From: a virus
Lineage: Duplodnaviria > Heunggongvirae > Uroviricota > Caudoviricetes
DNA length: 12,588 nt
Strand: one strand, 5' to 3'
Virus record (IMG/VR): IMGVR_UViG_2713896773_000018
Span: 1 to 12,588 of that record
The translations under genes and the position numbers were made by a program. The notes under the pieces are model-generated. The model searched no databases and was not told the origin of the DNA. It saw only the letters and a program-made list of their open reading frames with translations. This document shows, piece by piece, positions 1 to 12,588 of this stretch. The first letter of the stretch is position 1, and every line of letters starts with the position of its first letter.

Positions 1-597
1 TCATTGGGCTGCCTCCTGGCGAAGTTGGGCGGCGCGAATTGCTTTCCACTGCGACCACATTCCGTTGTAATCAGTACCGGAAAGAGTTGAGTTGCGGTAG
101 CCGTCATCAGTGCGCAAACCTTCTAGCGTGGTCTTAGAGATGAATATCTTCTCCATTACCCATTCTTCGAATAAATCACGCTCCGTCGCTTCATCTGGAA
201 TAGCACTTGCCCGTACTTCAGCCAGGAAAGCGTCGGTGGCTGGGGTTTTGTTATCTGACTCCAGCCACTGGTTGTAGTAATAATCGAACATGCCAGTAGG
301 ATAACCACATCCGCTGTGCACGTGGTCTTTCATAGCAGAACCACACATGCAGTAGTCATTGTCAGTATTGCTAATGATGTCGATAAGTTGCTGTGTCCGT
401 TGCTTCAACATCGCATTCTCCGCAGCCAGCGCCGCGCATCTGGCTTTAAGCTCTGATAATCGGTCACTGCATTCCGCCAGCACCACATCAACATCGGTAT
501 CAAGCGGAGGAACATGCATGCTGGCGCGGCCTTTGGTGAAGTCTTCAAGTGCCTTTTCGATTCGTTCTTTCAGTGCTGGCTGTGTATTATTTTTCAT
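1..597 (-). CDS. hypothetical phage protein (198 aa from ATG at 597; Cys/His-rich central segment CMCGSAMKDHVHSGCGYP); nin-region position downstream of ren
   Basis: Long minus-strand ORF with its stop codon at 1-3. The ATG at 595-597 overlaps the stop of the upstream Ren-like gene (ATGA overlap) and is preceded by a GGGGTGAGAG Shine-Dalgarno-like stretch. The upstream GTG at 651 has no usable spacer. No family recognised. Confidence 0.6.
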   Translation of the reverse strand: MKNNTQPALKERIEKALEDFTKGRASMHVPPLDTDVDVVLAECSDRLSELKARCAALAAENAMLKQRTQQLIDIISNTDNDYCMCGSAMKDHVHSGCGYPTGMFDYYYNQWLESDNKTPATDAFLAEVRASAIPDEATERDLFEEWVMEKIFISKTTLEGLRTDDGYRNSTLSGTDYNGMWSQWKAIRAAQLRQEAAQ

Positions 598-935
598 GCT
601 CTCACCCCGTATACGCTTAAAATTCTTCTCATCGCCGCGCTGTTGCGGCACTCCTGGCAGATCACGTTTGCCTCTGTACGCTGCACCAGCTTCGAATTTC
701 CCTTCGGCATAGCCGGGATTGTTTCTGGTGCGTATTTCATGCCGTAATCGGTCAGCCGATAAAGCCGCTGGCCGTATTTTCCTTCGCAGCGGATCAGGCC
801 GTCTGCCAGCAGCGTGCTCACCGTTCCGGATATCTTTTTGGTGTCCATGCCGATAAGCCCTGCCAGTTTGGCGTTGTTCAACCCTGGGTTGTTGCGCAGG
901 GCGGCCAGCACCTGCTCACGGATTGTTATGTTCAT
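594..935 (-). CDS. ren: Ren-like protein (113 aa)
   Basis: Start at the internal ATG 933-935, one nucleotide after the P stop; the ORF-track N-terminal extension overlaps P and is rejected. C-terminus ...CQECRNSAAMRRILSVYGVRA resembles the C-terminus of lambda Ren as I recall it (...KECRQSAAMKRVLAVYGVKR). Position immediately downstream of P matches lambda. Confidence 0.65.
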   Translation of the reverse strand: MNITIREQVLAALRNNPGLNNAKLAGLIGMDTKKISGTVSTLLADGLIRCEGKYGQRLYRLTDYGMKYAPETIPAMPKGNSKLVQRTEANVICQECRNSAAMRRILSVYGVRA

Positions 936-936
936 G

Positions 937-1626
937 TCACACCATCCCGTTCGACTTGTTGCGGTTGTACTTGGCCAGCAGCAGCTGGATCGGCGTCGGC
1001 CCTTGCTCGGCAGCTGGTGCGGCAATAGCCCGGCGTACCGGCGGCACTGGCTTACCCTCGGTGACGCGCCTTTCCCACATGTCCAGCAGATCGCCTGCCT
1101 CGCGTGCCAGTTCACCATGCGTTAACTGGCGCTCGGTGCTGCGGTGGCGCAATTCTACGCAAATGTGGTACATGACCGGCTGCGACCATGGAAATTGCTC
1201 GCTGGAGATGAATTCGAACGAACGATTACGCCATTCCCAGTACTCGGCGATCACCTGGTCAACGTTGACGCCCAGCGCGCCGCCGCTCTGCTTGCACCAG
1301 GCGACGAACTGGCCCGGCGACGGCAGGAATGGGCGCTCCTGGCGGCGGGCAATGCGCATGCCGGCATCGACCTGAGCCATGGTGTGGATCCCGTTCTCCT
1401 GAAACGCCAGCAGCCACTGACGGCGGAATTCGTTCAGGTCTTCCTGGGTGCGGAAGTTCGCCATGCTGGCCGGGAACGCGGCGCGCAGCTCGTTGAACAG
1501 CTTGTTGAATACCTGCGCCACCTGCTCGACCGGCGCGCACTCCTGGTACTGCTCTGGCAGGTTATGGGCCATGCGGCTCATCTGCTCGCGGTCGTGGTTA
1601 CGCATCTGCTCTGCAAGAGATTTCAT
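937..1626 (-). CDS. P: replication protein P-like (DnaB helicase loader), 229 aa
   Basis: Collinear similarity to lambda P from memory along the whole length (e.g. MKSLAEQMRNHDREQMSRMAHNLPEQY... and RRQERPFLPSPGQFVAWC). Start ATG 1624-1626 overlaps the O stop (ATGA) and is preceded by GGGGTGA. Confidence 0.9.
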   Translation of the reverse strand: MKSLAEQMRNHDREQMSRMAHNLPEQYQECAPVEQVAQVFNKLFNELRAAFPASMANFRTQEDLNEFRRQWLLAFQENGIHTMAQVDAGMRIARRQERPFLPSPGQFVAWCKQSGGALGVNVDQVIAEYWEWRNRSFEFISSEQFPWSQPVMYHICVELRHRSTERQLTHGELAREAGDLLDMWERRVTEGKPVPPVRRAIAAPAAEQGPTPIQLLLAKYNRNKSNGMV

Positions 1627-2531
1627 CGGATCACCCCATAGGCCCAGTCAGTGTTGTTGAAGTCCAGATCTGGCTTGACAGCGCGCTGCTCACCTCCGGC
1701 GTTACGCTGCATTGTCAGCTTGTCCCACTGCTTACGCAGGCTTTCGGGACTCAGGATGTTGGTCTGCCAGAAGTGGTGTTTGCTAGCCCAGTCATACAGC
1801 GCGCAGATGTCCTGGTGCGACCGGTTGTCTATCTGGCGCATCAGGCGAACAGTGTTAGACCAGGAGGTCATGTCCGGGGCTTTGCAGGTTGGGTTAATCA
1901 GCTTCACCCTGGAGGAAATCCACTTAGCTGTCTCGAGGTCTTCAGCAGAGCCCCACTTCGCACCGGATGGTGTGTAGACCGCAGCTTCAGGATGAGTTGA
2001 TAAAAATTTCTTCAGACGTGCGTCAGAGGATTCGTCAGAATTCTCGGACGAAGATCTTTTAATACTGTTCTTGTTCTTGTATTGGGTGTCTACCGTTTTC
2101 GGGAAGGTTATTCCTGATTTCGGGAAGGATTTTCCCGTTTTCGGGAATTTTCTTCCCGTTTCCGGTTTGTCTAAAATCCATGCTGAAAGGTCAGTGTTTA
2201 CACCGACGATTTTCATCATGCCCTGCTTCTGTGAAAAGATGATTTTGCGTTCTGCGAGAGACTTAAGCGCGTCCGATACATGCGTATCGCTCAGGCCCGT
2301 AAGCTCGGCAATAACCGTATTTGTCACGCGGTCCTGTTTCTTGTTCCAGCCGTAGGTAAGCCAGATCACCGCCTCAAAACATTGCCATTCCCGGCCTGAC
2401 AGTCTCAGGCGAGGCTTAAGCTGTTGGATCTCGTTAGCGACCTTGGTATACCCGTTCGACAGGTCGGCCATACGACCTCCCGGTTGTTCGGTTTTATTTG
2501 GGAAATTGATTATTTCAGCGGTGTTTGACAT
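1623..2531 (-). CDS. O: replication initiator O-like protein, 302 aa
   Basis: N-terminal region (MSNTAEIINFPNK...LTYGWNK...) resembles lambda O. Start ATG 2529-2531 with GGGAGTAAGT RBS; the upstream in-frame extension from the ORF track is rejected. A central repeated peptide FPKTGKSFPKSGITFPKT is encoded by the DNA iterons. Confidence 0.85.
   Translation of the reverse strand: MSNTAEIINFPNKTEQPGGRMADLSNGYTKVANEIQQLKPRLRLSGREWQCFEAVIWLTYGWNKKQDRVTNTVIAELTGLSDTHVSDALKSLAERKIIFSQKQGMMKIVGVNTDLSAWILDKPETGRKFPKTGKSFPKSGITFPKTVDTQYKNKNSIKRSSSENSDESSDARLKKFLSTHPEAAVYTPSGAKWGSAEDLETAKWISSRVKLINPTCKAPDMTSWSNTVRLMRQIDNRSHQDICALYDWASKHHFWQTNILSPESLRKQWDKLTMQRNAGGEQRAVKPDLDFNNTDWAYGVIR
2045..2160. other. 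phage origin of replication (ori-lambda-like): three 21-bp-spaced iterons with internal dyad symmetry plus an adjacent AT-rich stretch, inside the O gene
   Basis: TCGGGAA(GG) recurs at 2099, 2120 and 2141, exactly 21 bp apart, each followed by an inverted TTCC(C/T)G arm (CGGGAAGGATTTTCCCG, CGGGAATTTTCTTCCCG). The flanking 2045-2090 segment is AT-rich (cttttaatactgttcttgttcttgtatt). Lambda ori has the same layout within O. Confidence 0.7.
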
Positions 2532-2616
2532 ACTTACTCCCGTTACTTGCCGTAACACAGTGTGATAAGGGCCTTTGAAGTTACCGCTTCAAGGGCTTTT
2601 TCTTTTCTTGTGCCTC

Positions 2617-3159
2617 TCATATAACCCCCAGCATCGATGTAACCATCGTCATCAGCGGTCCTACCTGCTCCGGCATGAGGCGAAACAATGACGCTATGCC
2701 CTCGCTTACCTCCTTCATTTTCTGGTGCTCAGGCGCGTTCAGGAGAACGGCTTGCTTTGCTTCTGAACATTCCTTCATGGCAGATGCGATCAGCGACATG
2801 GTGTCGTTCTGCGGCGCCAGGCGTGTACGAAACTCAACAGGAAGAACAGCCATGATTGCCGGGGTCAGTTCTCTAACGTTCTCGCGGTACTGATCGGAGT
2901 CGAAGCGGTTATCCAGAAAGCGAAAAAGTTTCTGGCGCGCCCTGCTGATGTCTTCTGGGAAGCTGATGGCGGTACCGCCCTGCTCCCGGTATTCGTTGAT
3001 GATCAGCGCTGACACTACGTCCTGATTGTCCAGGGACGACGACCATGCACGGACCGCATCGCGGATTTTGTCGTGACCTGGCTCCGCCTTAGGTTGAGCG
3101 CGGTTTATCATCGCTCCCGGGTGTATTCCGGTATTGTGTTGATACGCAAGTGAATGCAT
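2617..3159 (-). CDS. CII-position regulatory protein, YdaT / CP76-type (180 aa)
   Basis: ATG at 3157-3159 with AAGGGA RBS. Lies between cro and O where lambda has cII, but is twice the size of CII. Segments IINEYREQGG... and RELTPAIMAVLPVEFRTRL resemble Rac prophage YdaT as I recall it. Family assignment is from memory and unverified. Confidence 0.5.
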   Translation of the reverse strand: MHSLAYQHNTGIHPGAMINRAQPKAEPGHDKIRDAVRAWSSSLDNQDVVSALIINEYREQGGTAISFPEDISRARQKLFRFLDNRFDSDQYRENVRELTPAIMAVLPVEFRTRLAPQNDTMSLIASAMKECSEAKQAVLLNAPEHQKMKEVSEGIASLFRLMPEQVGPLMTMVTSMLGVI

Positions 3160-3189
3160 TGCTTTCCCTTTCGTGGTTAGAGCCGCCGG

Positions 3190-3411
3190 TTAGGCGGCAA
3201 AGATACCTGGATATAGAACTTCGCGAGGAAGTCCGGTTACTTCTTCGTATTTACGCATTTTTGTTACTGGAAGGCTGCCACCTCGCTTTTTAAGCATATT
3301 GATGGCCTGAGGCGTTACGCCGACCTTTTCAGCAAGCACCTTTTGAGAGCCGCCCACTGCATTAATGGCTTTCTCAAGCGGGGTGCTGGCGTTGGATTTT
3401 TTGTTGATCAT
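3190..3411 (-). CDS. cro: Cro-like HTH regulator (73 aa)
   Basis: First gene divergent from the repressor. HTH segment QKVLAEKVGVTPQAINMLKKRGG. ATG at 3409-3411 with a GGAG RBS. Confidence 0.8.
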   Translation of the reverse strand: MINKKSNASTPLEKAINAVGGSQKVLAEKVGVTPQAINMLKKRGGSLPVTKMRKYEEVTGLPREVLYPGIFAA

Positions 3412-3432
3412 GTTTTGCTCCGCTCATGTGTA

Positions 3433-3506
3433 ATCAACACCATGTTAATTCATGGCGTGGATTAAATCAACATTATGGTGATGGAAAAAATCCACATGTT
3501 GTTTAC
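3433..3506. promoter_or_regulatory. OR-like operator cluster: three 17-bp sites of form ATC[AC]ACA-N3-TGnTnAn between cro and cI
   Basis: Site A 3433-3449 ATCAACA CCA TGTTAAT; site B 3466-3482 ATCAACA TTA TGGTGAT; site C 3490-3506 ATCCACA TGT TGTTTAC. The same half-site recurs in the OL region at 5458-5541. Confidence 0.65.
3442..3470 (-). promoter_or_regulatory. candidate PR promoter for cro (minus strand): -35 TTGATT (3465-3470), -10 TAACAT (3442-3447), 17-bp spacer
   Basis: Hexamers read on the minus strand; they overlap operator sites A and B as PR overlaps OR1/OR2 in lambda. The -10 is a weak match, so the exact hexamers are uncertain. Confidence 0.4.
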
Positions 3507-3528
3507 CATGCATGGAGCGGAGGGTTTT

Positions 3529-4248
3529 ATGAGCAGCATTTCTGAAAGAATTAAATTTTTACTGGCAAGGGAAGGCTTGAAGCAGCGGGATTTGGCTGAG
3601 GCTTTGTCGACTAGCCCACAGACCGTTAACAACTGGATAAAAAGAGACGCGTTAAGTCGTGAGGCGGCGCAACAAATATCTGAAAAATTCGGTTATTCTC
3701 TTGACTGGTTATTAAATGGAGAGGGTTCTCCAAAGAAGGATCTGGAGAGCAACATCCCGCCAGAGTCTGAGTGGGGAACTGTCGACGCTTGGGACAAAAA
3801 TACCCCCCTACCTGACGATGAGGTGGAAGTACCGTTTCTGAAGGATATCGAGTTTGCGTGTGGTGATGGACGAGTACACGATGAGGATCACAACGGTTTT
3901 AAATTGCGCTTTTCAAAAGCAACGCTCCGTCGAGTTGGAGCTAACACAGATGGGTCTGGCATCCTGTGTTTCCCTGCTACTGGCGACAGCATGGAACCTG
4001 TGATACCGGATGGTACGACTGTAGCCGTCGATACGAACAACAAACGCATAGTTGATGGGAAACTGTATGCCATTGGTCAGACAGATGGCGGGAATGGTCA
4101 ACTCAAGCGCATTAAACAGCTGTATCGTAAGCCAGGTGGGAAGCTGATCATCCGCAGTTACAACAACGACTCCTACCCAGACGAAGAGGCTGATATTGAT
4201 GATGTCGAGATAATTGGCCGTCTCTTCTGGTACTCGGTATTGCTGTAG
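3529..4248 (+). CDS. cI: CI-like prophage repressor (XRE-type HTH + S24 LexA-like autopeptidase), 239 aa
   Basis: N-terminal HTH (RDLAEALSTSPQTVNNWIKRD). C-terminal S24 signatures GDSMEP (catalytic Ser) and GQLKRIKQL (Lys). The ATG at 3529 has a GGAGCGGAGGG RBS; the upstream ATGs at 3475/3481 lie inside operator site B and lack an RBS. Confidence 0.9.
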   Translation: MSSISERIKFLLAREGLKQRDLAEALSTSPQTVNNWIKRDALSREAAQQISEKFGYSLDWLLNGEGSPKKDLESNIPPESEWGTVDAWDKNTPLPDDEVEVPFLKDIEFACGDGRVHDEDHNGFKLRFSKATLRRVGANTDGSGILCFPATGDSMEPVIPDGTTVAVDTNNKRIVDGKLYAIGQTDGGNGQLKRIKQLYRKPGGKLIIRSYNNDSYPDEEADIDDVEIIGRLFWYSVLL

Positions 4249-4294
4249 CGGTGGCCTGATGAGACGTTTTGGTGAAAGCATATAAGGACTGTTG

Positions 4295-5161
4295 ATGGAA
4301 AACACTGGCTTACACGATGTTAATTTTTCACTTAGATATGACGGTTTGGATGCTGAAAAGCATGAGATTGAACTTTCTTCGCTCGGTGAATCGCTAAAGG
4401 GATTTTCGAAGATATTAGCTACAGCTGGAACCTTCGCATTAACCCAAAAGTACTCGCGAAGCACCTCAACTCAAGAGGTTAAAATTTACGCTACCGAAGC
4501 TAGGGCCAATTGTTTTTCTCTTGATACTATCATGAATTTTATCAGTCAGTCTCAATTGTTCTCAGGGTCTGCGGGGGCTATACTTGGCGCATTAGTGCCT
4601 TATATCTTCGCTAAAAACTCGCAGAAGAAAGAGGAAATGAAATACCTAAAAGAAGCACTTGAGAAGGCAATTGAGGCCCTCGGAAATAAAGATAAAGATA
4701 CCATCTCAGGTCTAATCTCAGTGATTGACAAGATGGCTAGTGAGTTACGCCCATCAGTTAGACAGGCAGTTTCCCCCATCGGTACCACCTGTAATAAGAT
4801 AAGCGTCACACCGGGGAATGGTTTCAAGCCTGCTGTAATTGATGAGCAAGATAAAGCAGTAATAGACCAGTTGGACGACGACGAAGTTCTTGGCTTAAGG
4901 GAGTATCGAATCTTCCTTACTGAATTCGACGCTCACCGAATGACCGCTAAAGTCATTATAGAAGGTGATGATTCAGATAAGCGCATCTCAGCACAAATAA
5001 GCGATCCATCTGCTTCAAAGGCAGACAACCCGTATCTCATTTCACTTAGTCGTTTTCTGTCAACGGGTCTAAGTCATGAGTCAGCGGTAAAAGTAACTGC
5101 CAAAGCAGCAGTTAGAAAAGGGGCTATTAGTAAACTTTTCATAGTTGATATTGAGCTTTAA
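4295..5161 (+). CDS. hypothetical protein (288 aa) in the rex/immunity-moron position; one short hydrophobic stretch, no recognised domain
   Basis: ATG at 4295 with AAGGA RBS (the ORF track starts at a TTG at 4292). Immediately downstream of and co-oriented with cI, followed by a terminator. AT-rich: about 38% GC in a hand-counted 130-nt sample. Hydrophobic stretch [17 protein letters not shown], then a K/E-rich helical segment. Confidence 0.8.
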
Positions 5162-5164
5162 CAA

Positions 5165-5187
5165 CCGGCCACCGCGCCGGGTTTTTT
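5165..5187 (+). terminator. rho-independent terminator ending the cI operon
   Basis: CCGGC-CACCG-GCCGG stem-loop followed by TTTTTT, directly after the stop at 5159-5161. Confidence 0.7.
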
Positions 5188-5191
5188 GTGC

Positions 5192-5401
5192 CTACTTCAC
5201 AGCTTTACTACCCTTCCTGACTATCTCAGCTGCATCCCTGTTCACACCCTTACCTATCACGTTTCCCGTTTCCTTCCGGTACCGTTCCAGCTTGTCGATG
5301 ATGTTTTGCTGGGTCATAGGTAAATCTGCCAGTGACAACTCCATGACCGCCCGCCCCATGGCGTGAACCATCATGTTCACTCTTTCTTCATCCAAGTCCA
5401 T
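5192..5401 (-). CDS. hypothetical small protein (69 aa), convergent with the cI operon
   Basis: Strong RBS AAAGGAGTGGGTA before the ATG at 5399-5401. Its upstream region is the AT-rich operator-bearing segment 5402-5500. No family recognised. Confidence 0.6.
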   Translation of the reverse strand: MDLDEERVNMMVHAMGRAVMELSLADLPMTQQNIIDKLERYRKETGNVIGKGVNRDAAEIVRKGSKAVK

Positions 5402-5457
5402 TACCCACTCCTTTTTGATGTTTTTTTCAGCATATCACTTATGCCACCAAAAAATAA

Positions 5458-5542
5458 ATCAACATAAAAATCAACAGTAAACGATTAAATCAACAAAATA
5501 AATCCACAAGGTGTTGACCTACAAATCCACATGATGTTTAAT
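5458..5542 (+). promoter_or_regulatory. OL/PL-like region: operator half-site array plus candidate PL (-35 TTGACC 5514-5519, -10 TTTAAT 5537-5542, 17-bp spacer)
   Basis: ATCAACA at 5458, 5470 and 5489; full sites ATCCACA AGG TGTTGAC (5502-5518) and ATCCACA TGA TGTTTAA (5525-5541). The promoter hexamers sit inside these two sites, as in lambda OL1/OL2. Confidence 0.6.
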
Positions 5543-5588
5543 TACTCCATCGAAACGAAACATCGACAGCTGAGCGAAGTTAGCCAGC

Positions 5589-5619
5589 GGCGGACAGCAA
5601 GTCGCCTGCTTTTTAACAA
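5589..5619 (+). promoter_or_regulatory. candidate nutL-like antitermination site: hairpin (5589-5606) followed by boxA-like TGCTTTTTAACAA (5607-5619)
   Basis: TGCTTTTTAACAA differs at one position from the E. coli rrn boxA core TGCTCTTTAACAA as I recall it. It lies about 40-70 nt downstream of the predicted PL start, preceded by a GGCGG/UCGCC stem. Confidence 0.4.
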
Positions 5620-5843
5620 CATGCAAAGTCGGAACAGCACTCAGTAATCCTGTTTAGACCCCAACGTACAAATTCGGCGCAGCACCGGGCGCGATCCGGT
5701 CGGTGTGAGGCTACCCCCTCGCGAGAGCGATAAAGGCGTGGGAACGGGCAACACTGGCTGGATGAGAGGTGCGAAGCGCAAACAGATTTATTCCAGTCCA
5801 TTCGAAGTTGAGTGGGCTGGGCTGAATCACAAGAGGATTTTTT

Positions 5844-6056
5844 ATGACTCAGACATACATTCCGGCGTGTTTAAGAGACCTTCCTAAGAAGCGTCAGAAG
5901 CCACGCAAACAGGCGATTAAAGAAGCGCAAGTGGAAGTTCTGAATAAGGCAATCGCATCGATAAAAGACGATATGCGTGCGTTCAAAACAGAAGAGCAGC
6001 GTCGCGGTCATTACCAGGCGATCAGCACACTCTCACAGATTCGTGATGAGTTGTAG
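5844..6056 (+). CDS. small basic protein (70 aa), first gene of the PL operon (N position); function unassigned
   Basis: Strong RBS AAGAGGA with a 6-nt spacer. Basic N-terminal segment LPKKRQKPRKQAIK. No clear arginine-rich motif of the lambda N type, so an antiterminator role is positional inference only. Confidence 0.6.
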   Translation: MTQTYIPACLRDLPKKRQKPRKQAIKEAQVEVLNKAIASIKDDMRAFKTEEQRRGHYQAISTLSQIRDEL

Positions 6057-6079
6057 AAGCTGATAGATAAAGCATTTCT

Positions 6080-6097
6080 CCCGCATCAGCGGGTAAC
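6080..6097 (+). repeat. copy 1 of a 17-bp direct repeat CCGCATCAGCGGGTAAC (hairpin CCCGC-ATCA-GCGGG)
   Basis: Identical 17-mer at 6081-6097 and 6303-6319, each just upstream of a gene's RBS. Confidence 0.8.
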
Positions 6098-6113
6098 TAA
6101 GTGGAGAGTACGT

Positions 6114-6302
6114 ATGCACAAGTGTCAATTCTGTGGGTACTTTCTGGCATCTGAAGAGATGCAGAGAATATCTGTAAACATGGTTGGCAGGCCTTACAAC
6201 ATCTGCATTCCATGCTCAGAAAAGTACAAAAAGAAAGGCCTGTGGGATTCGGCAAAAAACGATATCGACTGGAAATCACTTCCATGCGTCGATGAGACAT
6301 AA
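6114..6302 (+). CDS. small zinc-ribbon-like protein (62 aa; CxxC...CxxC)
   Basis: RBS GGAGAG with a 5-nt spacer. Cys pairs CQFC and CIPC about 24 residues apart. AT-rich. Flanked by the 17-bp direct repeats. Confidence 0.6.
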   Translation: MHKCQFCGYFLASEEMQRISVNMVGRPYNICIPCSEKYKKKGLWDSAKNDIDWKSLPCVDET

Positions 6303-6319
6303 CCGCATCAGCGGGTAAC
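6303..6319 (+). repeat. copy 2 of the 17-bp direct repeat CCGCATCAGCGGGTAAC
   Basis: Exact match to 6081-6097; begins one nucleotide after the stop of the 6114-6302 gene. Confidence 0.8.
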
Positions 6320-6335
6320 GACAGAGGGTAAGTCA

Positions 6336-7004
6336 ATGATTCGTCTTAACAACGAAATTAAAAATCAGCTATGCCATAACCTGCTTCTCGCATCCCCATT
6401 GTTTGAGAAAGCGAAAGCTGCGGTTAATGAGAGGGCGAAAATTGTTGAAGAAATTCGACAGGCATTGCTCAAGCAGGAAAACACTAGCGATGAGCAAATA
6501 ACTAAGGCTCGGGAAGATTTCAAAGATAACTCCTTCATCAAGATGCAGGTCGGCGCTAAAACTGCAACTTTAAAGGTCATTATTAATGGTGAGTATCACG
6601 AATTAGCCAGGAACGGTTTGGATCATCGCTATCGCCACCGTGGAAAACATATTGGTAAGCACGATCTTGAAAGCGACCTGTTCTTCGGAGCTTCCTTCGC
6701 GCCTGTAATTGATTCGGGTTTCGTTCCTGAAAGTTACAGCACGCTGAAGAAAGTTGGAAAATTACACGACCGACTCACTGAATCGACGGTAACCATCAAC
6801 GTTCTTTACGATGAAGTTGATGCCTTCCAATTGCAGGTTAAAGGTGCTCTAACCAAAGTCTCAACTGTTAAAAAACTGGCTGAGATGTGGCCTGAGGCAG
6901 TGCCATATTTGCCTGAGGTGGAACGCCGTGAAGCGACCAGCACCGCACTTGCCATTCCCGTTGAAACGCTAAACGCCCTTTGCGGCATACCAAAGAATGA
7001 ATGA
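6336..7004 (+). CDS. hypothetical protein (222 aa), AT-rich accessory gene in the ral/sieB-equivalent position
   Basis: RBS GAGGG. A long ORF with no internal stops in AT-rich DNA, followed by a strong terminator. No family recognised. Confidence 0.8.
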   Translation: MIRLNNEIKNQLCHNLLLASPLFEKAKAAVNERAKIVEEIRQALLKQENTSDEQITKAREDFKDNSFIKMQVGAKTATLKVIINGEYHELARNGLDHRYRHRGKHIGKHDLESDLFFGASFAPVIDSGFVPESYSTLKKVGKLHDRLTESTVTINVLYDEVDAFQLQVKGALTKVSTVKKLAEMWPEAVPYLPEVERREATSTALAIPVETLNALCGIPKNE

Positions 7005-7026
7005 CCCGCTCCGGCGGGTTTTTTAT
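7005..7026 (+). terminator. rho-independent terminator
   Basis: CCCGC-TCCG-GCGGG stem-loop followed by TTTTTTAT, immediately after the TGA at 7002-7004. Confidence 0.8.
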
Positions 7027-7165
7027 CGGCCATACATAGGCAGATTTTCGAGTCTGCCCATTTATGACAACCGGCGGCCATCCACCGCCCATTGAAACAC
7101 TGAATAAATGCGTTGAAGTCTTGTATTAACCGTTCGGCGGCGCGGCCTTAAGCGCGGAGATGATT

Positions 7166-7675
7166 ATGACTCTTATCGAATTGACCAAAAAGAAAATGGC
7201 AATTGAAGCCGAACTGGCTCAGTTGAAGGCGAAGTTTGTTGATGACACCTCACGCATCGGTAAAGAGCTGATTGCCGTGTCTGAAGGTATCAACCAGGCC
7301 AATAAAGGCCTAACGGTTGAGATGGTTAGGCATGGCATGACGATCATTAACTTCGGTGACCCGAAACAAAGCATGGAGCGGCGCGGGTGTGTTGAAGACG
7401 CGATTAACGACATTGCGTCGGGGTTCAACCGTCTGAGCGAGCGTTATTTTGGCACAAAAAACTACGCCCACTGGAGCGATCAGCGTGAAGACCATCGCTA
7501 TGGATATGGCCCTAAACACGGCTCTATCTGCTTCAAGATCGGTTTAACTGGCACCGCACTTAATAAGCTGGCAAGCGGCGGGTTGAGTGATTACGACGCT
7601 GAATGCGCTATCTACTGCCTGATGAACATTGACGCCATCAATGCGGCAAACGACAAAGCCCGGGAGGCATCATGA
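7166..7675 (+). CDS. hypothetical phage protein (169 aa)
   Basis: GGAG at 7156-7159 favours the ATG at 7166 over the one at 7160. The stop overlaps the next ORF's start (ATGA). Confidence 0.7.
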   Translation: MTLIELTKKKMAIEAELAQLKAKFVDDTSRIGKELIAVSEGINQANKGLTVEMVRHGMTIINFGDPKQSMERRGCVEDAINDIASGFNRLSERYFGTKNYAHWSDQREDHRYGYGPKHGSICFKIGLTGTALNKLASGGLSDYDAECAIYCLMNIDAINAANDKAREAS

Positions 7676-7830
7676 CAGTCACCCATAACGGAAAGAAGTA
7701 CACCGCCAAAAAGCTCAACGATAACGAGTGGCAGCTGACGTCCGTATCGGCACCGCGTGAAAAGCTGACGCTTAACCGCTGGCATATGAAGCTGGCTGGC
7801 CTCCTGGAACAGGTTGAGGTGAAGGTATGA
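7672..7830 (+). CDS. small hypothetical protein (52 aa; MTVTHNGKKYTAKKLNDNEWQLTSVSAPREKLTLNRWHMKLAGLLEQVEVKV), not in the supplied ORF track
   Basis: Strong RBS GGGAGG 5 nt upstream of the ATG at 7672. ATGA overlaps with both the upstream and downstream genes suggest translational coupling. Confidence 0.55.
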   Translation: MTVTHNGKKYTAKKLNDNEWQLTSVSAPREKLTLNRWHMKLAGLLEQVEVKV

Positions 7831-8333
7831 TGCGAAAGCACAAGTTGCCAAGTGCTGAGGAGATAGATTCCTTGCTGGATTACAACCCTGAAACCGGAGT
7901 ATTTACGTGGAAAGTGACGAAATCAGGATGGGTTGTAAAGGGGCGGCCTGCTGGTTCAAAAAACAATAATGGCTATCTCCGAGTTGGTATTGGAAGAAGG
8001 CACTACTTCCTTTCTCGAATCGCATTTTTCTTATGCACCGGGGAATCACCTGAAGAAGTAGACCATATCAATGGTGACAGAACAGATAACAGGGCGTGCA
8101 ACTTAAGAGCCGCAAGCCGTCATGAAAACTGCCTCAATAAGTCGGTAAGAAGCGACAGCAGGACTGGTGTAAAGGGCGTCTCATGGCGACCGGATGTTAA
8201 AAAATGGTCTGCACGATCAACTGATTCATCGGGGAAGAGAGTGTTTTTAGGTTACTACCGCACCATCAGAGATGCGGTGGCTGTCCTTAATGATTTTCGG
8301 AGAGAACAGCATGGTGAGTTTGCAAAAAATTAG
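7827..8333 (+). CDS. HNH homing endonuclease with C-terminal AP2-type DNA-binding domain (168 aa)
   Basis: HNH motif EEVDHINGDRTDNRACNLRAASRHENCLN. AP2-like segment GVKGVSWRPDVKKWSARST...KRVFLGYY. RBS GAGGTGAAGG. Confidence 0.85.
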   Translation: MMRKHKLPSAEEIDSLLDYNPETGVFTWKVTKSGWVVKGRPAGSKNNNGYLRVGIGRRHYFLSRIAFFLCTGESPEEVDHINGDRTDNRACNLRAASRHENCLNKSVRSDSRTGVKGVSWRPDVKKWSARSTDSSGKRVFLGYYRTIRDAVAVLNDFRREQHGEFAKN

Positions 8334-8544
8334 CAGCAACTTGCACTACGGCACCACCCCGCTCATTCGCCAGTGCGTCACGCCAGGCATGATGGCATTG
8401 CATGAAGGCCGCACCTATCGCGTCTCAGCAGTCATTCAGGAGCGCAAATGGGTGTACCTGCACACCGATGCAGAAATTATCCGCCTCAGTGACTGCGTGA
8501 TTGACGTCCTTCTGGACGGTCACGGAAACCCTATCCAGCACTAA
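8311..8544 (+). CDS. hypothetical protein (77 aa), start overlapping the 3' end of the HNH gene by 23 nt
   Basis: RBS GGAGAG with a 6-nt spacer before the ATG at 8311; the ORF-track start at 8272 has no RBS. Confidence 0.5.
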   Translation: MVSLQKISSNLHYGTTPLIRQCVTPGMMALHEGRTYRVSAVIQERKWVYLHTDAEIIRLSDCVIDVLLDGHGNPIQH

Positions 8545-8613
8545 CCACCCTATTCATCCGATCGGCCTGGCTTCTGCGGGCGGGATCTGCACATCCAAAT
8601 TTCAGGAGAAACC

Positions 8614-9582
8614 ATGAGCGAAGTAACGGACTTAACTGTCATCGAAATCAAGCCGGAACAGGCCCCAGTGCTTTACGTAGCGGGCGGCCTTGACGCGTAC
8701 CTTGAGCAAATCCGCCAGGCTGTAAACGAAGTGCCGGACCTGTCCACGAAGAAAGGCCGTGACCGTGTCGCCTCTCTGGCGGCGCAGGTATCCCGCAGCA
8801 AGACAGCAATCGAAAAGCCGGGCCGTGAATACCTTAAGCGCCTGAAAGAGGCTGTGCGTCCGGCTGAGGCCGAAATTAAGCGTTTCGTTGATGCTTGCGA
8901 CGAGCTACGTGATGCCACCCGCCGCCCACTCACCGAATGGGAAGCCGAGCAGGAGCGCATCAAGGCTGAAGAAGCCATGAATGCGCTGCACGCCGAAGCG
9001 CTGGAGATGAACGAAGAGTTTGACCGCCAGCGCGCCGCTCAAATCGAAGCGGACCACGAAATGGCTCTGCTGATGAATGAGAAGTTTGACCGTGACCGCG
9101 AAGAGCAGCGCCGCCTGGCAGAACAGGCTCAGCGCGAACGTGACGAACGACTGAAGCAGGACGCGGCAGAACAAGCCCGCCGCGATGCCGAAGCGATGCA
9201 CAAAGCAGAGATTGAAGCCGCAGCGCGCCGTGAAGCTGAAGAGAAAGCACGTGCAGAGCTGGCTGAACGCCAGCGCGTCGAAGCGGAACAGCGTGCAGCT
9301 CGCGAGAAGCAGGAAGCAATCGCAGAAGAAAAACGCAAAGCGCAGGAAGAAGCAGATCGCATCAAGCGCGAAGCTGAAGCGAAAGAGAAAGCCCGTCTGG
9401 CCGAAGAGCAGCGCAAAGTTGAAGAAGAAGCGCGCCGCGCCGCAGACAAAGAGCACCGCCGCACCGTCAACCGTCGCGTCATCGCCGACCTTATAGCTCA
9501 GGGCATCCCCGAAGAATTCGCGCAGAAAGCACTGCTGGCGATCGCTGGCGGCAAAGTGCAGGACGCGCACATCAAATATTGA
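8614..9582 (+). CDS. hypothetical protein (322 aa) with a long Ala/Glu/Arg/Lys-rich low-complexity central region
   Basis: RBS AGGAG. Globular-looking N-terminus of about 100 aa, then about 180 aa of ERKA-rich repeats (e.g. AEEKRKAQEEADRIKREAEAKEKARLAEEQRKVEEEARRA), then a short C-terminal tail. Located immediately upstream of gam. Confidence 0.75.
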   Translation: MSEVTDLTVIEIKPEQAPVLYVAGGLDAYLEQIRQAVNEVPDLSTKKGRDRVASLAAQVSRSKTAIEKPGREYLKRLKEAVRPAEAEIKRFVDACDELRDATRRPLTEWEAEQERIKAEEAMNALHAEALEMNEEFDRQRAAQIEADHEMALLMNEKFDRDREEQRRLAEQAQRERDERLKQDAAEQARRDAEAMHKAEIEAAARREAEEKARAELAERQRVEAEQRAAREKQEAIAEEKRKAQEEADRIKREAEAKEKARLAEEQRKVEEEARRAADKEHRRTVNRRVIADLIAQGIPEEFAQKALLAIAGGKVQDAHIKY

Positions 9583-9589
9583 GGCAACC

Positions 9590-9871
9590 ATGAACGCATA
9601 CCTCACTTACGACCGAATCGAAGATCGGCGCTGGGTTGAGCAGCAGCTCACCGACGAGAAGGAGAAGTGGATCGACAACCGGGCGAAAGAACTGATCGCC
9701 ATGTTCCCGAAATATGCTCTGCAAATGAGTAGCCTGTTTCTCCCAAAAGAAGCGCAAATGGCACTAGTCGGTGAAAAGGCAGAGGAAGCCTATAACGACT
9801 ATGTCACACGCATCTGTTACGACCGCGCCGAAGAAGAGTGGGATCGCCTTCATCCAACCTGCCCATTTTAA
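9590..9871 (+). CDS. gam: Gam-like host-nuclease (RecBCD) inhibitor, 93 aa
   Basis: N-terminus MNAYLTYDRIEDRRW... resembles the short form of lambda Gam (MNAYYIQDRLEAQSW...) from memory. Position directly upstream of the annealing-protein and exo genes. RBS GAGG. Confidence 0.55.
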   Translation: MNAYLTYDRIEDRRWVEQQLTDEKEKWIDNRAKELIAMFPKYALQMSSLFLPKEAQMALVGEKAEEAYNDYVTRICYDRAEEEWDRLHPTCPF

Positions 9872-9880
9872 GGAGGGGCT

Positions 9881-10798
9881 ATGAGCTTAACCCTTGTTGA
9901 TTTCGTCAAACAACAGGAGCCGCTTTTCATTAAGGCGGCCACAGACGAGCGGATGGTGTGGGCGAAGGAAAGCCAGTTCGCCATCCAGCTATTTCAGAAC
10001 AATGACTACCTCGCGAAAGTCGCATTCCAGAACCAGACCAGCACGCAGAACGCAATAATCAACGTTGCGGCTATCGGTATTTCGCTAAACCCAGCTCAGA
10101 AGCTGGCTTACCTGGTTCCGCGTAAAGGGGCAGTTTGCCTCGACATCAGTTACATGGGCCTGATGCACATTGCGCAGCAGTCTGGCGCCATTAAATGGTG
10201 TCAGTCGGCAATTGTTCGCAGAAACGACCAGTTCCGCCGCGAAGGGCTCGATAAGCCGCCGGTCCATATCTACAACGACTTCGATACCGAAGAGCAGCGC
10301 GGGGACATCGTAGGGGCATATGTAACGGTAAAAACTGACGATGGTGATTACCTCACCCATACGATGCGCATCGATGCCATTTACTCCATCCGTGACCGGT
10401 CTGAAGCATGGAAGAAGTACAAATCTGACAACAGTAAAAAGTGTCCATGGGTCACTGACGAAGAACAGATGATCCTCAAAACAGTCGTGAAGCAGGCAGC
10501 AAAATACTGGCCTCGCCGTGAGCGCCTGGACGCCGCCATAGACCACGTTAACACCGAGGGCGAAGAAGGTATCAACTTTACAGCAGAGCGTCAGCCTGAG
10601 CGCGATATAACGCCGCTTAGCGAAACCACGCAGAAAGAGATAAACGACCTGCTTGTCTCTTTGGATAAGACATGGGATGACGATCTTCTCCCTCTCTGCT
10701 CACGCATTTTCAAACGCCCTATCACGCAGCCAGCAGACCTGACAGAGCTTGAAGGTGTTAAAGCTCTCGGGTTCCTCAGACAAAAGGCGGCAGCATGA
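9881..10798 (+). CDS. single-strand annealing protein: RecT-like core with a Red-beta (Bet)-like C-terminal tail, 305 aa
   Basis: Perfect RBS AGGAGG. The C-terminal ~70 aa ([13 protein letters not shown]...[16 protein letters not shown]...[12 protein letters not shown]) closely match the lambda Bet C-terminus as I recall it. The N-terminal ~230 aa look RecT-like rather than Bet-like. Stop overlaps the exo start (ATGA). Confidence 0.8.
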
Positions 10799-11475
10799 CA
10801 CCAGAAATTATCCTGGCCCGGACCGGCATTGACGTAACCACTATCCAGCAGGGCGACGAGGCGTGGCACCGGCTGCGCCTCGGCGTTATCACCGCATCTG
10901 AAGTTCACAACGTCATTTCCAAGCCCAGATCTGGGAAGAAGTGGACAGACATGAAAATTTCCTACTTCCACACCCTACTCGCCGAGGTATGCACCGGCGT
11001 AGCGCCAGAGGTTAACGCCAAGGCGCTGGCCTGGGGGAAGCAGTATGAAGAAGACGCCCGCACCCTCTTCGAGTTCACCACCGACGTGAAAGTCACGGAG
11101 TCTCCGATCTTGTTCCGTGACGAGAGCATGCGCACCGCGTGCTCACCTGACGGCCTTTGCAGTAACGGATTCGGCCTCGAATTGAAATGCCCGTTCACCT
11201 CCCGCGACTTCATGAAATTCCGCCTTGGCGGTTTCGAAGCCATCAAGTCTGCCTACATGGCCCAGGTGCAGTTCAGCATGTGGGTGACCGGGAAAGACGC
11301 CTGGTTCTTTGCCAACTACGACCCGCGCATGAAGCGCGAAGGTATTCACCACGTCGTCGTTGAGCGGGATCCACAGTACATGACCAATTTCAACGAAATG
11401 GTGCCGGAGTTCATCGAGAAGATGGACGAGGCGCTGGCGGAGATCGGCTTCAGGTTCGGGGAGCAGTGGAAATGA
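10795..11475 (+). CDS. exo: lambda-type 5'-3' exonuclease (Red-alpha / YqaJ family), 226 aa
   Basis: Near-collinear, high-identity match to lambda Exo from memory ([14 protein letters not shown]...[24 protein letters not shown]...[31 protein letters not shown]...[10 protein letters not shown]). Confidence 0.93.
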
Positions 11476-11518
11476 AACGCACACCATTTTACCGCAGGCC
11501 CGGGCGAACCGGGCAATC

Positions 11519-12097
11519 ATGAAACGCCTGGACGATGTTTGCGGCAAAGCAGGATGGCGCAATGAATACCGCGATATTCCCAACAACGGCGGAGTTGAAT
11601 GCGGCATATCAATCAAGATTGATTCCGAATGGGTAACCAAATGGGATGCTGCTGAAAACACGCAGGTAGAAGCCGTCAAAGGTGGTCGTTCAGGTGCAAT
11701 GAAGCGTGCTGCCGTTCAGTGGGGAATAGGTCGGTATCTGTATAACCTTGAGGAAGGTTTCGCACAAACATCTCTCGATAAAAAGCAGGGATGGCACAGG
11801 GCAAAACTCAAGGGTGGAACAGGATTTTACTGGCTCCCTCCATCGCTGCCGGGATGGGCAATCCCAGCATCAGATAACAAACCATCACCAGAAAATACCA
11901 ACCATAAATCTCCATCGGTTGACTGCGAGCAAATCCTGAAAGACTTCAGCGATTATGCGTCAACAGAAACTGATAAGAAAAAACTCATCGAGCGTTATCA
12001 GCGTGACTGGCAATTAATGGCTGGCAACGAGGAGGCGCAGGCTAAATGCGTTCAGGTAATGAACATCAGAGTTAACGAACTAAAACAGGCGGCATAA
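11519..12097 (+). CDS. Erf/Rad52-superfamily-like protein, apparently N-terminally shortened (192 aa)
   Basis: C-terminal ~55 aa (EQILKDFSDYASTETDKKKLIERYQRDWQLMAGNEEAQAKCVQVMNIRVNELKQAA) closely match the P22 Erf C-terminus as I recall it. Rad52-like motif AMKRAAVQWGIGRYLY at residues ~60-75 leaves too little upstream sequence for a complete annealing domain. Weak RBS. Confidence 0.55.
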   Translation: MKRLDDVCGKAGWRNEYRDIPNNGGVECGISIKIDSEWVTKWDAAENTQVEAVKGGRSGAMKRAAVQWGIGRYLYNLEEGFAQTSLDKKQGWHRAKLKGGTGFYWLPPSLPGWAIPASDNKPSPENTNHKSPSVDCEQILKDFSDYASTETDKKKLIERYQRDWQLMAGNEEAQAKCVQVMNIRVNELKQAA

Positions 12098-12319
12098 ATG
12101 GCAAGCAGAGGCGTAAATAAGGTGATCATTATTGGTCGCCTTGGGCATGATCCAGAAATCAGAGATTCATTCAACAAGGTTGCAAAGCGCGTTCCGGCAT
12201 TCAAAGGAATCCTCAACGAATGGGATTCACTCGTTGCTCTGTTGAAGTCTGAAATGAAGATACACGGAAACAAAGCACCAGAGACTTACAGAAGAATCAG
12301 CGAGCTACGCAAGGACTAA
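12098..12319 (+). CDS. 73-aa ORF whose first 22 codons are an ssb 5' remnant (MASRGVNKVIIIGRLGHDPEIR) fused to unrelated sequence
   Basis: The first ~66 nt resemble the start of E. coli ssb at protein and DNA level, from memory. After codon 22 no frame continues SSB-like sequence, so this is a recombination junction rather than a frameshift. Whether the product is functional is unknown. Confidence 0.45.
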   Translation: MASRGVNKVIIIGRLGHDPEIRDSFNKVAKRVPAFKGILNEWDSLVALLKSEMKIHGNKAPETYRRISELRKD

Positions 12320-12320
12320 C

Positions 12321-12381
12321 GCCTCACACTCGATGAGGCCTGTACATATCTGATAGAGCCGCTATATGGCGGTTTATTTTT
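12321..12381 (+). terminator. two hairpins after the ssb-remnant ORF; the second (12358-12381) is terminator-like with a T-tract
   Basis: Perfect 6-bp inverted repeat GCCTCA-N7-TGAGGC at 12321-12339. Then CCGC-TATATG-GCGG followed by TTTATTTTT. Confidence 0.45.
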
Positions 12382-12396
12382 GCCTGGAGAATTAAG

Positions 12397-12588
12397 ATGA
12401 CCGATACCAGCCTGATTCCTGAGAAAGAAGTGATGAACAAGCTCGGTGTTTCATCACGTCAGACAATCTGGAACTATACCAAACGGCACGGATTTCCGAA
12501 GCCAGTCAGAACCCACCCCAAATCATACCTTCGTGAAGCTGTTGAAGGGTGGATTCTTAACGGTGGCGTTAATCAGAAATGCTCCTGA
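12397..12588 (+). CDS. xis: excisionase / AlpA-family small HTH protein (63 aa)
   Basis: RBS GGAGAA. Motif EKEVMNKLGVSSRQTIWNYTKRHGFPKPV is typical of the AlpA/Xis family. Sits at the distal end of the early-left operon where xis-int lie in lambdoid phages. The stop is at the last three bases of the window. Confidence 0.75.
   Translation: MTDTSLIPEKEVMNKLGVSSRQTIWNYTKRHGFPKPVRTHPKSYLREAVEGWILNGGVNQKCS

Follow-up and report, generated by a model that had tools for sequence, protein, structure and literature searches.

A RecT-family annealing core joined to a Red-beta-type C-terminal domain beside a lambda-type exonuclease gene in a phi80-like prophage

Annealase/exonuclease pairs work only with the cognate partner, and a locus in which the annealing protein seems to combine the core of one family with the tail of another raises the question of whether the protein is a natural chimera and of what joins it to its exonuclease. 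The locus lies in a 12,588-nucleotide stretch of DNA (the window; positions 1 to 12,588 of IMG/VR virus record IMGVR_UViG_2713896773_000018, Caudoviricetes). A preliminary description of this sequence placed two overlapping open reading frames at 9881-10798 and 10795-11475, exactly where we find them, and read the first as a RecT-like core with a Bet-like tail, formed by a natural domain swap, and the second as a lambda-type Exo. The features that bear on the question are the following:

8614-9582, + strand: agt/Mog-like gene, agreeing with phi80 agt in length and position (phrog_1376, 3.6e-103)
9590-9871, + strand: gamL, phi80-type inhibitor of the host nuclease RecBCD (NCBIfam NF033500 phi80_GamL, 1.8e-43)
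9881-10798, + strand: rec, 305-aa single-strand annealing protein (SSAP), ortholog of the phage phi80 'rec' product (RecT-like), with two domains and a linker
9881-10564, + strand: annealing core of Rec, aa 1-228, RecT family, 'SAP-4' type (name taken from PMC12315714)
10514-10603, + strand: interdomain linker of Rec, aa ~212-241, disordered in the AF2 model (pLDDT <50)
10565-10795, + strand: Red-beta-type C-terminal domain (CTD) of Rec, aa 229-305, with helices at aa 248-260, 265-277 and 289-304
10600-10960, + strand: patch diverging from phi80
10795-10798, + strand: overlap of the rec stop and the exo start, ATGA, 4 nt
10795-11475, + strand: exo, 226-aa lambda-type 5'-3' exonuclease (YqaJ/lambda Exo family)
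11041-11079, + strand: ridge of Exo helix E, aa 83-95

The window carries a lambdoid prophage's early region, and its positions 895-11517 are about 95% identical to phi80 at the nucleotide level, the phi80 immunity region included. The early-left operon on the + strand also holds an HNH endonuclease gene and kil. The opening gene of the three-gene rec module is gamL, which takes the position that it has in phi80 and Enterobacter phage vB_EclS_CobraSix (hereafter CobraSix); the order, spacing and overlap of gamL-rec-exo are common to all three. The agt/Mog-like gene lies upstream, as the partner of gamL (agt of phi80 is annotated as 'anti-toxin for Gam'), and the whole agt-gamL-rec-exo module is colinear with phi80 at ~95% nucleotide identity. 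By analogy with lambda bet/exo, which also overlap by 4 nt (exo 31348-32028, bet 32025-32810), the ATGA overlap most probably couples the translation of rec and exo. No promoter-like sites or + strand terminators were found between 8400 and 12355. For this phi80-like lambdoid prophage, gamL-rec-exo is the recombination module, and it would be transcribed within the early-left operon. Since the antisense open reading frames in 10085-11679 have no Pfam match and the window holds no Rfam family, the + strand reading has no competitor. The DNA 3' of exo is unrelated to phi80. Directly downstream lie decayed recombination genes, a truncated Rad52/Erf-like SSAP and the remnant of an SSB fusion, which tell that local rearrangement has occurred.

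The two parts of Rec resemble different families. The Pfam RecT model (PF03837) matches aa 31-213 (1.4e-29; 103.5 bits against a cut-off of 24), and the NCBIfam model TIGR00616 'rect' is passed with 56.1 bits (cut-off 52.65). Rec is not matched by the TIGR01913 'bet_lambda' equivalog, which is the single NCBIfam model matched by lambda Bet (169.5 bits, over residues 12-176 only). Rec is no ortholog of RecT itself, since it scores 70.6 on the E. coli RecT equivalog NF007351, far under 296; over its aa 57-211 it is 29% identical to Rac RecT (~160 aa, E 2e-15). With PHROGs, aa 4-253 come out as RecT-like and aa 178-300 as Bet-like, and BLASTP against lambda Bet returned nothing outside aa 229-304. 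The similarity is not uniformly to one family, with Bet aligning to aa 229-304 only and Rac RecT to aa 57-211. Among PDB sequences and structures, Red-beta 1-177 gave no match to Rec by phmmer or Foldseek, and Listeria RecT 7UB2 gave a weak phmmer match to the core (E 0.006). The AF2 model of full Rec was built from a shallow alignment (19 close homologs), with a pLDDT of about 50-70 in the core; with this low-confidence core, Foldseek found Listeria RecT 7UB2/7UBB (E 1e-5 and 6e-3, TM 0.38-0.57), the sole significant matches of the Rec model outside the CTD. Because the AF2 core is of low confidence, it is on sequence profiles that the assignment to RecT rests, and by these the core is of the RecT family and not of the Bet family. 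Of the earlier statement that the first ~230 residues are RecT-like and not Bet-like, the first half therefore stands (PF03837 and TIGR00616 matched, TIGR01913 not); the second half is valid at the level of family and not as a difference of fold, RecT and Red-beta sharing one superfamily.

The tail is a Red-beta CTD, as judged by sequence and predicted fold. Residues 229-304 of Rec align with lambda Bet 180-255 at 67% identity and ungapped (BLASTP, E 3e-33), bearing out the claim that the last ~70 residues resemble the Bet CTD. In a phmmer search of PDB sequences, the Red-beta CTD chains 8TFU (6.7e-29) and 6M9K (8.2e-22) match aa 232-304. AF2 predicts a three-helix bundle with a pLDDT of 79-95, which Foldseek superposes on 6M9K/8TFU/8TG7 with a TM of 0.89-0.95 and an rmsd of 0.4-0.6 Å.

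By sequence, the partner gene encodes a clear ortholog of lambda Exo, lambda-type and not RecE. The protein is 85% identical to lambda Exo over 226/226 aa, ungapped (E 2e-155), with 78% identity at the nucleotide level, and 94% identical to the Exo of phi80. Pfam YqaJ (PF09588) is matched at 6e-31 (108.2 bits against a cut-off of 22), and TIGR03033 at 53.2, below its cut-off of 68.05. The active-site stretch SPDG...LELKCPF is the same in the alignment of the window and lambda proteins, and D119, E129 and K131 are presumably the catalytic residues. The exonuclease had been described as lambda-type rather than RecE-like, as we also find, but 'nearly identical' to lambda Exo overstates an identity of 85% (aa) or 78% (nt).

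Where were the two parts of Rec joined? In a codon-anchored comparison, nucleotide similarity to lambda bet starts abruptly at about nt 10577, at the codons for T-A-E-R-Q-P-E-R-D; upstream of this point there is none, and the ~36 nt that follow are about 85% identical. The onset falls within the linker that divides the two domains of Red-beta. A second discontinuity is seen against phi80: in a 60-nt identity profile, the patch at 10600-10960 drops to 55-70% nucleotide identity, whereas the flanks on both sides stand at about 95%. The patch extends over the CTD and some 55 codons at the start of exo, and CobraSix has it too. Between the window and phi80 the core is 99% identical in amino acid sequence, and the CTD is 62% identical, with 42% identity at third codon positions; outside the patch, exo is 94% identical to phi80 at the nucleotide level. 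Read from these sequence discontinuities, Rec most probably arose by recombination within the linker between its domains.

Such a joint could also be an artefact, through mis-assembly of two prophages or as a decaying pseudogene fusion, and the decayed recombination genes directly downstream of exo would fit that reading. An intact 305-aa open reading frame with the same junction is found, however, in the independently sequenced phi80, CobraSix and ENT47670, as well as in 105 complete E. coli genomes, many IMG/VR contigs and about a dozen Enterobacterales species, and the phi80 gene is functional (see below). These independent occurrences refute an artefact, to which we assign a negligible probability.

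If Rec arose by recombination in its linker, the CTD may be looked for on other cores. A homologous CTD was found directly upstream of a lambda-type Exo on four annealing cores:

Core type 1, Bet: lambda and SEN34
Core type 2, phi80/SAP-4 RecT: the window, phi80, CobraSix, ENT47670, Midgardsormr38 and Stx2a phage PA2
Core type 3, the Klebsiella ST11-VIM1phi8.1 type
Core type 4, ERF (PF04404, 6e-23): P0171, an IMG/VR locus (L096), Erwinia aeris (L131) and Xenorhabdus

A CTD-bearing SSAP is present at all 80 IMG/VR loci whose Exo shares 93-98% identity with that of the window; a small open reading frame sits between rec and exo in 23 of them, four of which were inspected directly. Conversely, phages HK140, HK639 and Dewey, which have MuGam and no Exo, carry cores 58-60% identical to the window's, followed by a common helical tail unrelated to the CTD. 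In SAP-4 relatives with distant Exos (37-40% identity), similarity of the tail to the CTD is weak (profile E 3e-10 in Yersinia) or undetected; the tail of Yersinia YenM_12 is 31% identical and that of Vibrio is marginal. Three classes of CTD allele occur among the IMG/VR loci on cores with 96% identity or more, and at many loci an Exo ~97% identical to the window's stands beside a Klebsiella-type CTD only ~49% identical to the window's. That the CTD and exo always travel together is rejected by these near-identical Exos; because of them, the two are not strictly co-inherited, and specificity must in consequence rest on a few residues.

Wider searches for the CTD were of uneven use. With HMMER, a search of 50%-identity representatives gave 27 matches, mostly fragments, the ERF-core chimera P0171 among them; clustering into such representatives hides CTD matches. 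A CTD-only search of a word index of 5.8 billion proteins returned fragments only and was uninformative on cores. In a genome scan with a narrower CTD alignment, more than half of the matches came from lambda DNA that contaminates unrelated assemblies, and these were set aside; the genuine ones were all from Enterobacterales.

An alternative without any swap is that the CTD is ancestral to the RecT/Red-beta superfamily and was inherited vertically, the tail merely evolving more slowly than the cores. RecT and Red-beta do have a common fold and a single Pfam family, and the weakly similar tails that distant SAP-4 proteins keep beside distant Exos (YenM_12 and, marginally, Vibrio) are compatible with an old association of CTD and Exo. 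Among close relatives, however, it is the CTD that has changed fast or been replaced, as the comparison of the window with phi80 shows, and the same CTD is borne by an ERF core, which belongs to another Pfam family. The Exo-less SAP-4 cores, 59% identical to the window's, end in an unrelated tail. PA2, with a core no closer than those of Aeromonas and Vibrio (55-58%), nevertheless has an Exo 84% identical to the window's, against 38-40% for theirs. Together with the abrupt onset of similarity to lambda, the four cores, the 80 of 80 loci, the tails of the Exo-less relatives and the CTD alleles make vertical inheritance with a slow tail unlikely, and we consider it very improbable.

A natural domain swap, as first proposed for this protein, is supported by the same comparisons: four cores, unrelated tails where Exo is absent, at least three CTD alleles, and similarity to lambda that begins abruptly in the linker. 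The exchange may have brought a Bet-type tail onto a RecT core or, equally, a RecT-type core in front of a CTD-exo unit. Judged by its distribution, the CTD is a cassette that occurs, mostly in company with exo, on several annealing cores unrelated to one another; on the phi80-type core its allele has undergone more than one replacement.

What the tail might do is suggested by the lambda complex. In 6M9K, the surface of Exo helix E docks into a groove of the CTD, with T90, L91, F94 and T95 of Exo entering a pocket formed by L223, I227, F249 and L250 and capped by K253; complex formation needs each of L91, F94, L223 and F249 (PMC6393309). All six positions of the Exo ridge (Q83, D87, T90, L91, F94 and T95) are identical between the window and lambda, as are L272, I276, F298, L299, Q301 and K302 of the window CTD, which correspond to lambda L223, I227, F249, L250, Q252 and K253. 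Differences lie at the periphery, in the CTD at Q226 (R275 in the window), R229 (K278) and E256 (A305), and in Exo at L184 (I) and Y186 (H); alanine changes at Q226, R229 and E256 were tolerated in lambda (Caldwell et al. 2019, PMC6393309). [quoted passage not shown] In the distant Exos of Aeromonas and Vibrio this core is lost (A91/A94), and the tails of their SSAPs are not recognisably Red-beta-like. From the conservation of these residues and the adjacency of the genes, we infer that the CTD of Rec would cooperate with its lambda-type Exo.

The same conservation might instead reflect binding of host SSB, as an adaptation to Enterobacterales, in which case the adjacent lambda-type Exo would be incidental and any cooperation with it independent of the CTD. 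The Red-beta CTD pocket that takes up helix E is also implicated in binding the C-terminal tail of SSB (PDB 8TFU/8TG7; PMC6393309), mutants in L223, F249 and K253 lose Exo-independent ssDNA recombination as well (PMC6393309), and the genuine genomic CTD matches are confined to Enterobacterales. Yet the Exo-less E. coli phages HK140, HK639 and Dewey use another tail in spite of having the same host SSB, and a CTD-bearing SSAP was present at every lambda-type Exo locus examined. Moreover, L91 and F94 of Exo, which are needed for CTD binding only (PMC6393309), are invariant in the lambda-type Exos compared and absent in the distant ones. The two roles are also compatible, the published model being a hand-off from Exo to SSB. 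A CTD kept for SSB alone is in our view very unlikely, marginally more so than an ancestral CTD.

Taken together, the reading that we prefer, and regard as highly probable, combines a modular annealase, recombination in the linker and a CTD that grips a lambda-type Exo. The RecT-family N-terminal domain of Rec would bind and anneal ssDNA, and a flexible linker would connect it with the three-helix CTD of the Red-beta type. By analogy with lambda Red, the groove of the CTD (L272, I276, F298 and L299, with K302 as the cap) would grip helix E (L91, F94) of a trimeric Exo; physical binding of the CTD to Exo and SSB, and the mechanism of loading, are likewise extrapolated from lambda.

A bolder extension of this reading is possible but doubtful: the CTD, usually with a lambda-type exo, might be a portable adaptor for any Rad52-superfamily core (Bet, two RecT-like types or ERF), the conserved linker motif serving as a recurrent recombination joint, with repeated allele replacement on cores that hardly differ otherwise, possibly driven by selection for partner specificity or by anti-recombinase defence. 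If so, some 60 residues would determine nearly all of the partner specificity of annealases and exonucleases, which could then be redesigned freely for recombineering. Short of this, the Rec family and its sister chimeras form a natural test set for asking whether partner specificity depends on the CTD alone, and are useful for the design of tail-swapped recombineering proteins. There is also a point of annotation, in that the label 'recombinase RecT' hides a second, unannotated domain; more than 5900 Rec homologs were found, and they bear this label wherever the source names them. Of 5426 complete E. coli genomes, 105 carry the rec-exo pair, which is also present in many Enterobacterales.

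The gene pair is that of phi80 rec-exo (Lula; NC_021190 / JX871397), which is known, annotated and functionally tested. Both have the gamL-rec-exo order, proteins of 305 and 226 aa, the same spacing and the ATGA overlap; Rec is 90% identical overall (core 99%) and Exo 94%, and the differences are the CTD allele (62%), the 5' end of exo and the DNA downstream of exo. In phi80 the genes are annotated as 'RecT-like ssDNA annealing protein (note: bet)' and 'exonuclease, similar to lambda Exo'. Deletion of phi80 recT lowers phage-prophage recombination in vivo, in a study whose sole description of RecT-phi80 was its 32% identity with Red-beta (De Paepe et al. 2014, PMC3945230). The closest deposited phage for the gene pair is CobraSix (NC_071003; 94.4% nucleotide identity), with an SSAP 98% and an Exo 97% identical in amino acid sequence and the same CTD allele at 93.5%; its genes are labelled only as hypothetical or putative (putative RecT and exonuclease), and the flanking genes differ.

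Lambda Red shares with the window the CTD (67%), Exo (85%), the hydrophobic interface and the bet/exo overlap, but its core is of another family; Bet's final five residues and E256 are missing from Rec, and GamL takes the place of Gam. Rac RecT/RecE offers the converse likeness, a RecT-family core (29% over about 160 aa, matched by the same Pfam and TIGRFAM models), with a short unrelated tail of 39 aa and with RecE, not a lambda-type Exo, as the partner. According to a passage of PMC5052646 that cites Muyrers 2000, RecT does not cooperate with lambda Exo. Closer in architecture are Stx2a phages PA2/P13374 (SAP-4), Klebsiella ST11-VIM1phi8.1 and the ERF-core proteins, in which a homologous CTD precedes an Exo 71-98% identical to the window's; their cores are, respectively, 55% identical, Bet-like (27%) and ERF, and their CTDs are 45-65% identical to that of the window. 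A SAP-4-type core is reported to be paired with RecE in phage Edno5 (PMC12315714), which was absent from the best 60 matches listed in the phage collection.

As to the domain itself, the Red-beta CTD was reported to have no significant homology to other proteins (Caldwell 2019, PMC6393309), and a 2023 review gave it as unknown whether annealases beyond Red-beta use a similar CTD (PMC11611040). In 2021 and again in 2025, annealases were proposed to shuffle Red-beta-CTD-like domains, so that the idea of tail shuffling is already published. Because the pair is the known phi80 rec-exo, the interpretation first given to this locus was right but not new; what the present comparison adds is modest, and consists of a domain map with the junction in the linker, the conservation of a solved interface, the occurrence of the CTD on four cores and the repeated replacement of CTD alleles.

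A Red-beta-type C-terminal domain (CTD) is also present on annealases of the ERF superfamily (PF04404, 6e-23), namely P0171, an ERF-core protein found by database search, and the proteins encoded at three comparison loci, L096 (2992-4424), L131 and L133. At these three loci, from one IMG/VR contig, Erwinia aeris and Xenorhabdus stockiae, the gene for the CTD-bearing ERF-core annealase is followed by one for a lambda-type Exo, 71-81% identical to that of the window. The joining of an ERF core to a Red-beta-type CTD is a cross-family chimera, of which we found no published description.

In the annealases of phages HK140, HK639 and Dewey, the core belongs to the same RecT-like family as the window's, but the tail is another one, a helical stretch of about 75 residues common to the three (53-96% identity among them), and the gene after that of the annealase is Mu Gam-like, in place of an exonuclease gene. 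The tail may be a domain that binds some other partner. The loci of the three proteins are:
L008, 2992-4369
L094, 2995-4394
L095, 3001-4381

Among the 80 IMG/VR loci with a near-identical Exo, 23 (L014, L027, L031, L061 and 19 more) carry a small ORF between the annealase and exonuclease genes, of 68, 78 or 95 aa (the last Cys-rich), with loss of the usual ATGA overlap; the rec/exo boundary is thus itself a mosaic insertion point.

A scan of genome contigs with the CTD also returned matches identical to that of lambda bet in assemblies of unrelated organisms, including Oceanobacillus, Shewanella, Bradyrhizobium, Kitasatospora, Pseudomonas and a Nanosynbacter MAG (L101-L118, L121, L125, L128 and L129). 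The carriers are short or ~48-kb contigs of low coverage, and L102, when checked, proved to encode lambda Bet at 100% identity, followed by lambda Exo. These loci are almost certainly contaminating lambda control DNA.

Right behind exo, the window holds leftovers of a second recombination module (11519-12319), and similarity to phi80 stops at the same place where these begin:
within 11519-12319, Rad52/Erf-like annealase ORF (Pfam Rad52_Rad22 positions 38-153), lacking about 44 N-terminal residues and covering phrog_1097 positions 45-251 of 251
within 11519-12319, 73-aa ORF, the start of an SSB (first ~24 residues) joined to the final portion of an unrelated PHROG family
The segment looks like a module-replacement scar.

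The early-left operon also contains an HNH endonuclease ORF, which runs into the beginning of the overlapping kil-like ORF (8272-8544); the phi80 and CobraSix stretches compared carry no HNH annotation:
7827-8333, HNH endonuclease ORF (phrog_99, 3.3e-64)
With 53.2 bits, the window Exo (10795-11475), despite its 85% identity to lambda Exo, does not reach the 68.05 bits set as curated cut-off for the NCBIfam model TIGR03033 ('lambda-exonuclease family protein'), and would be left unnamed by that model on its own.

Relative to phi80, a patch of the window (10600-10960), which takes in the CTD plus about 55 codons at the start of exo, has been replaced, with a brief island of identity at the rec/exo overlap inside it; the Exo residues contacting the CTD fall beyond its end. 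CobraSix, unlike phi80, has the window's version of this patch.
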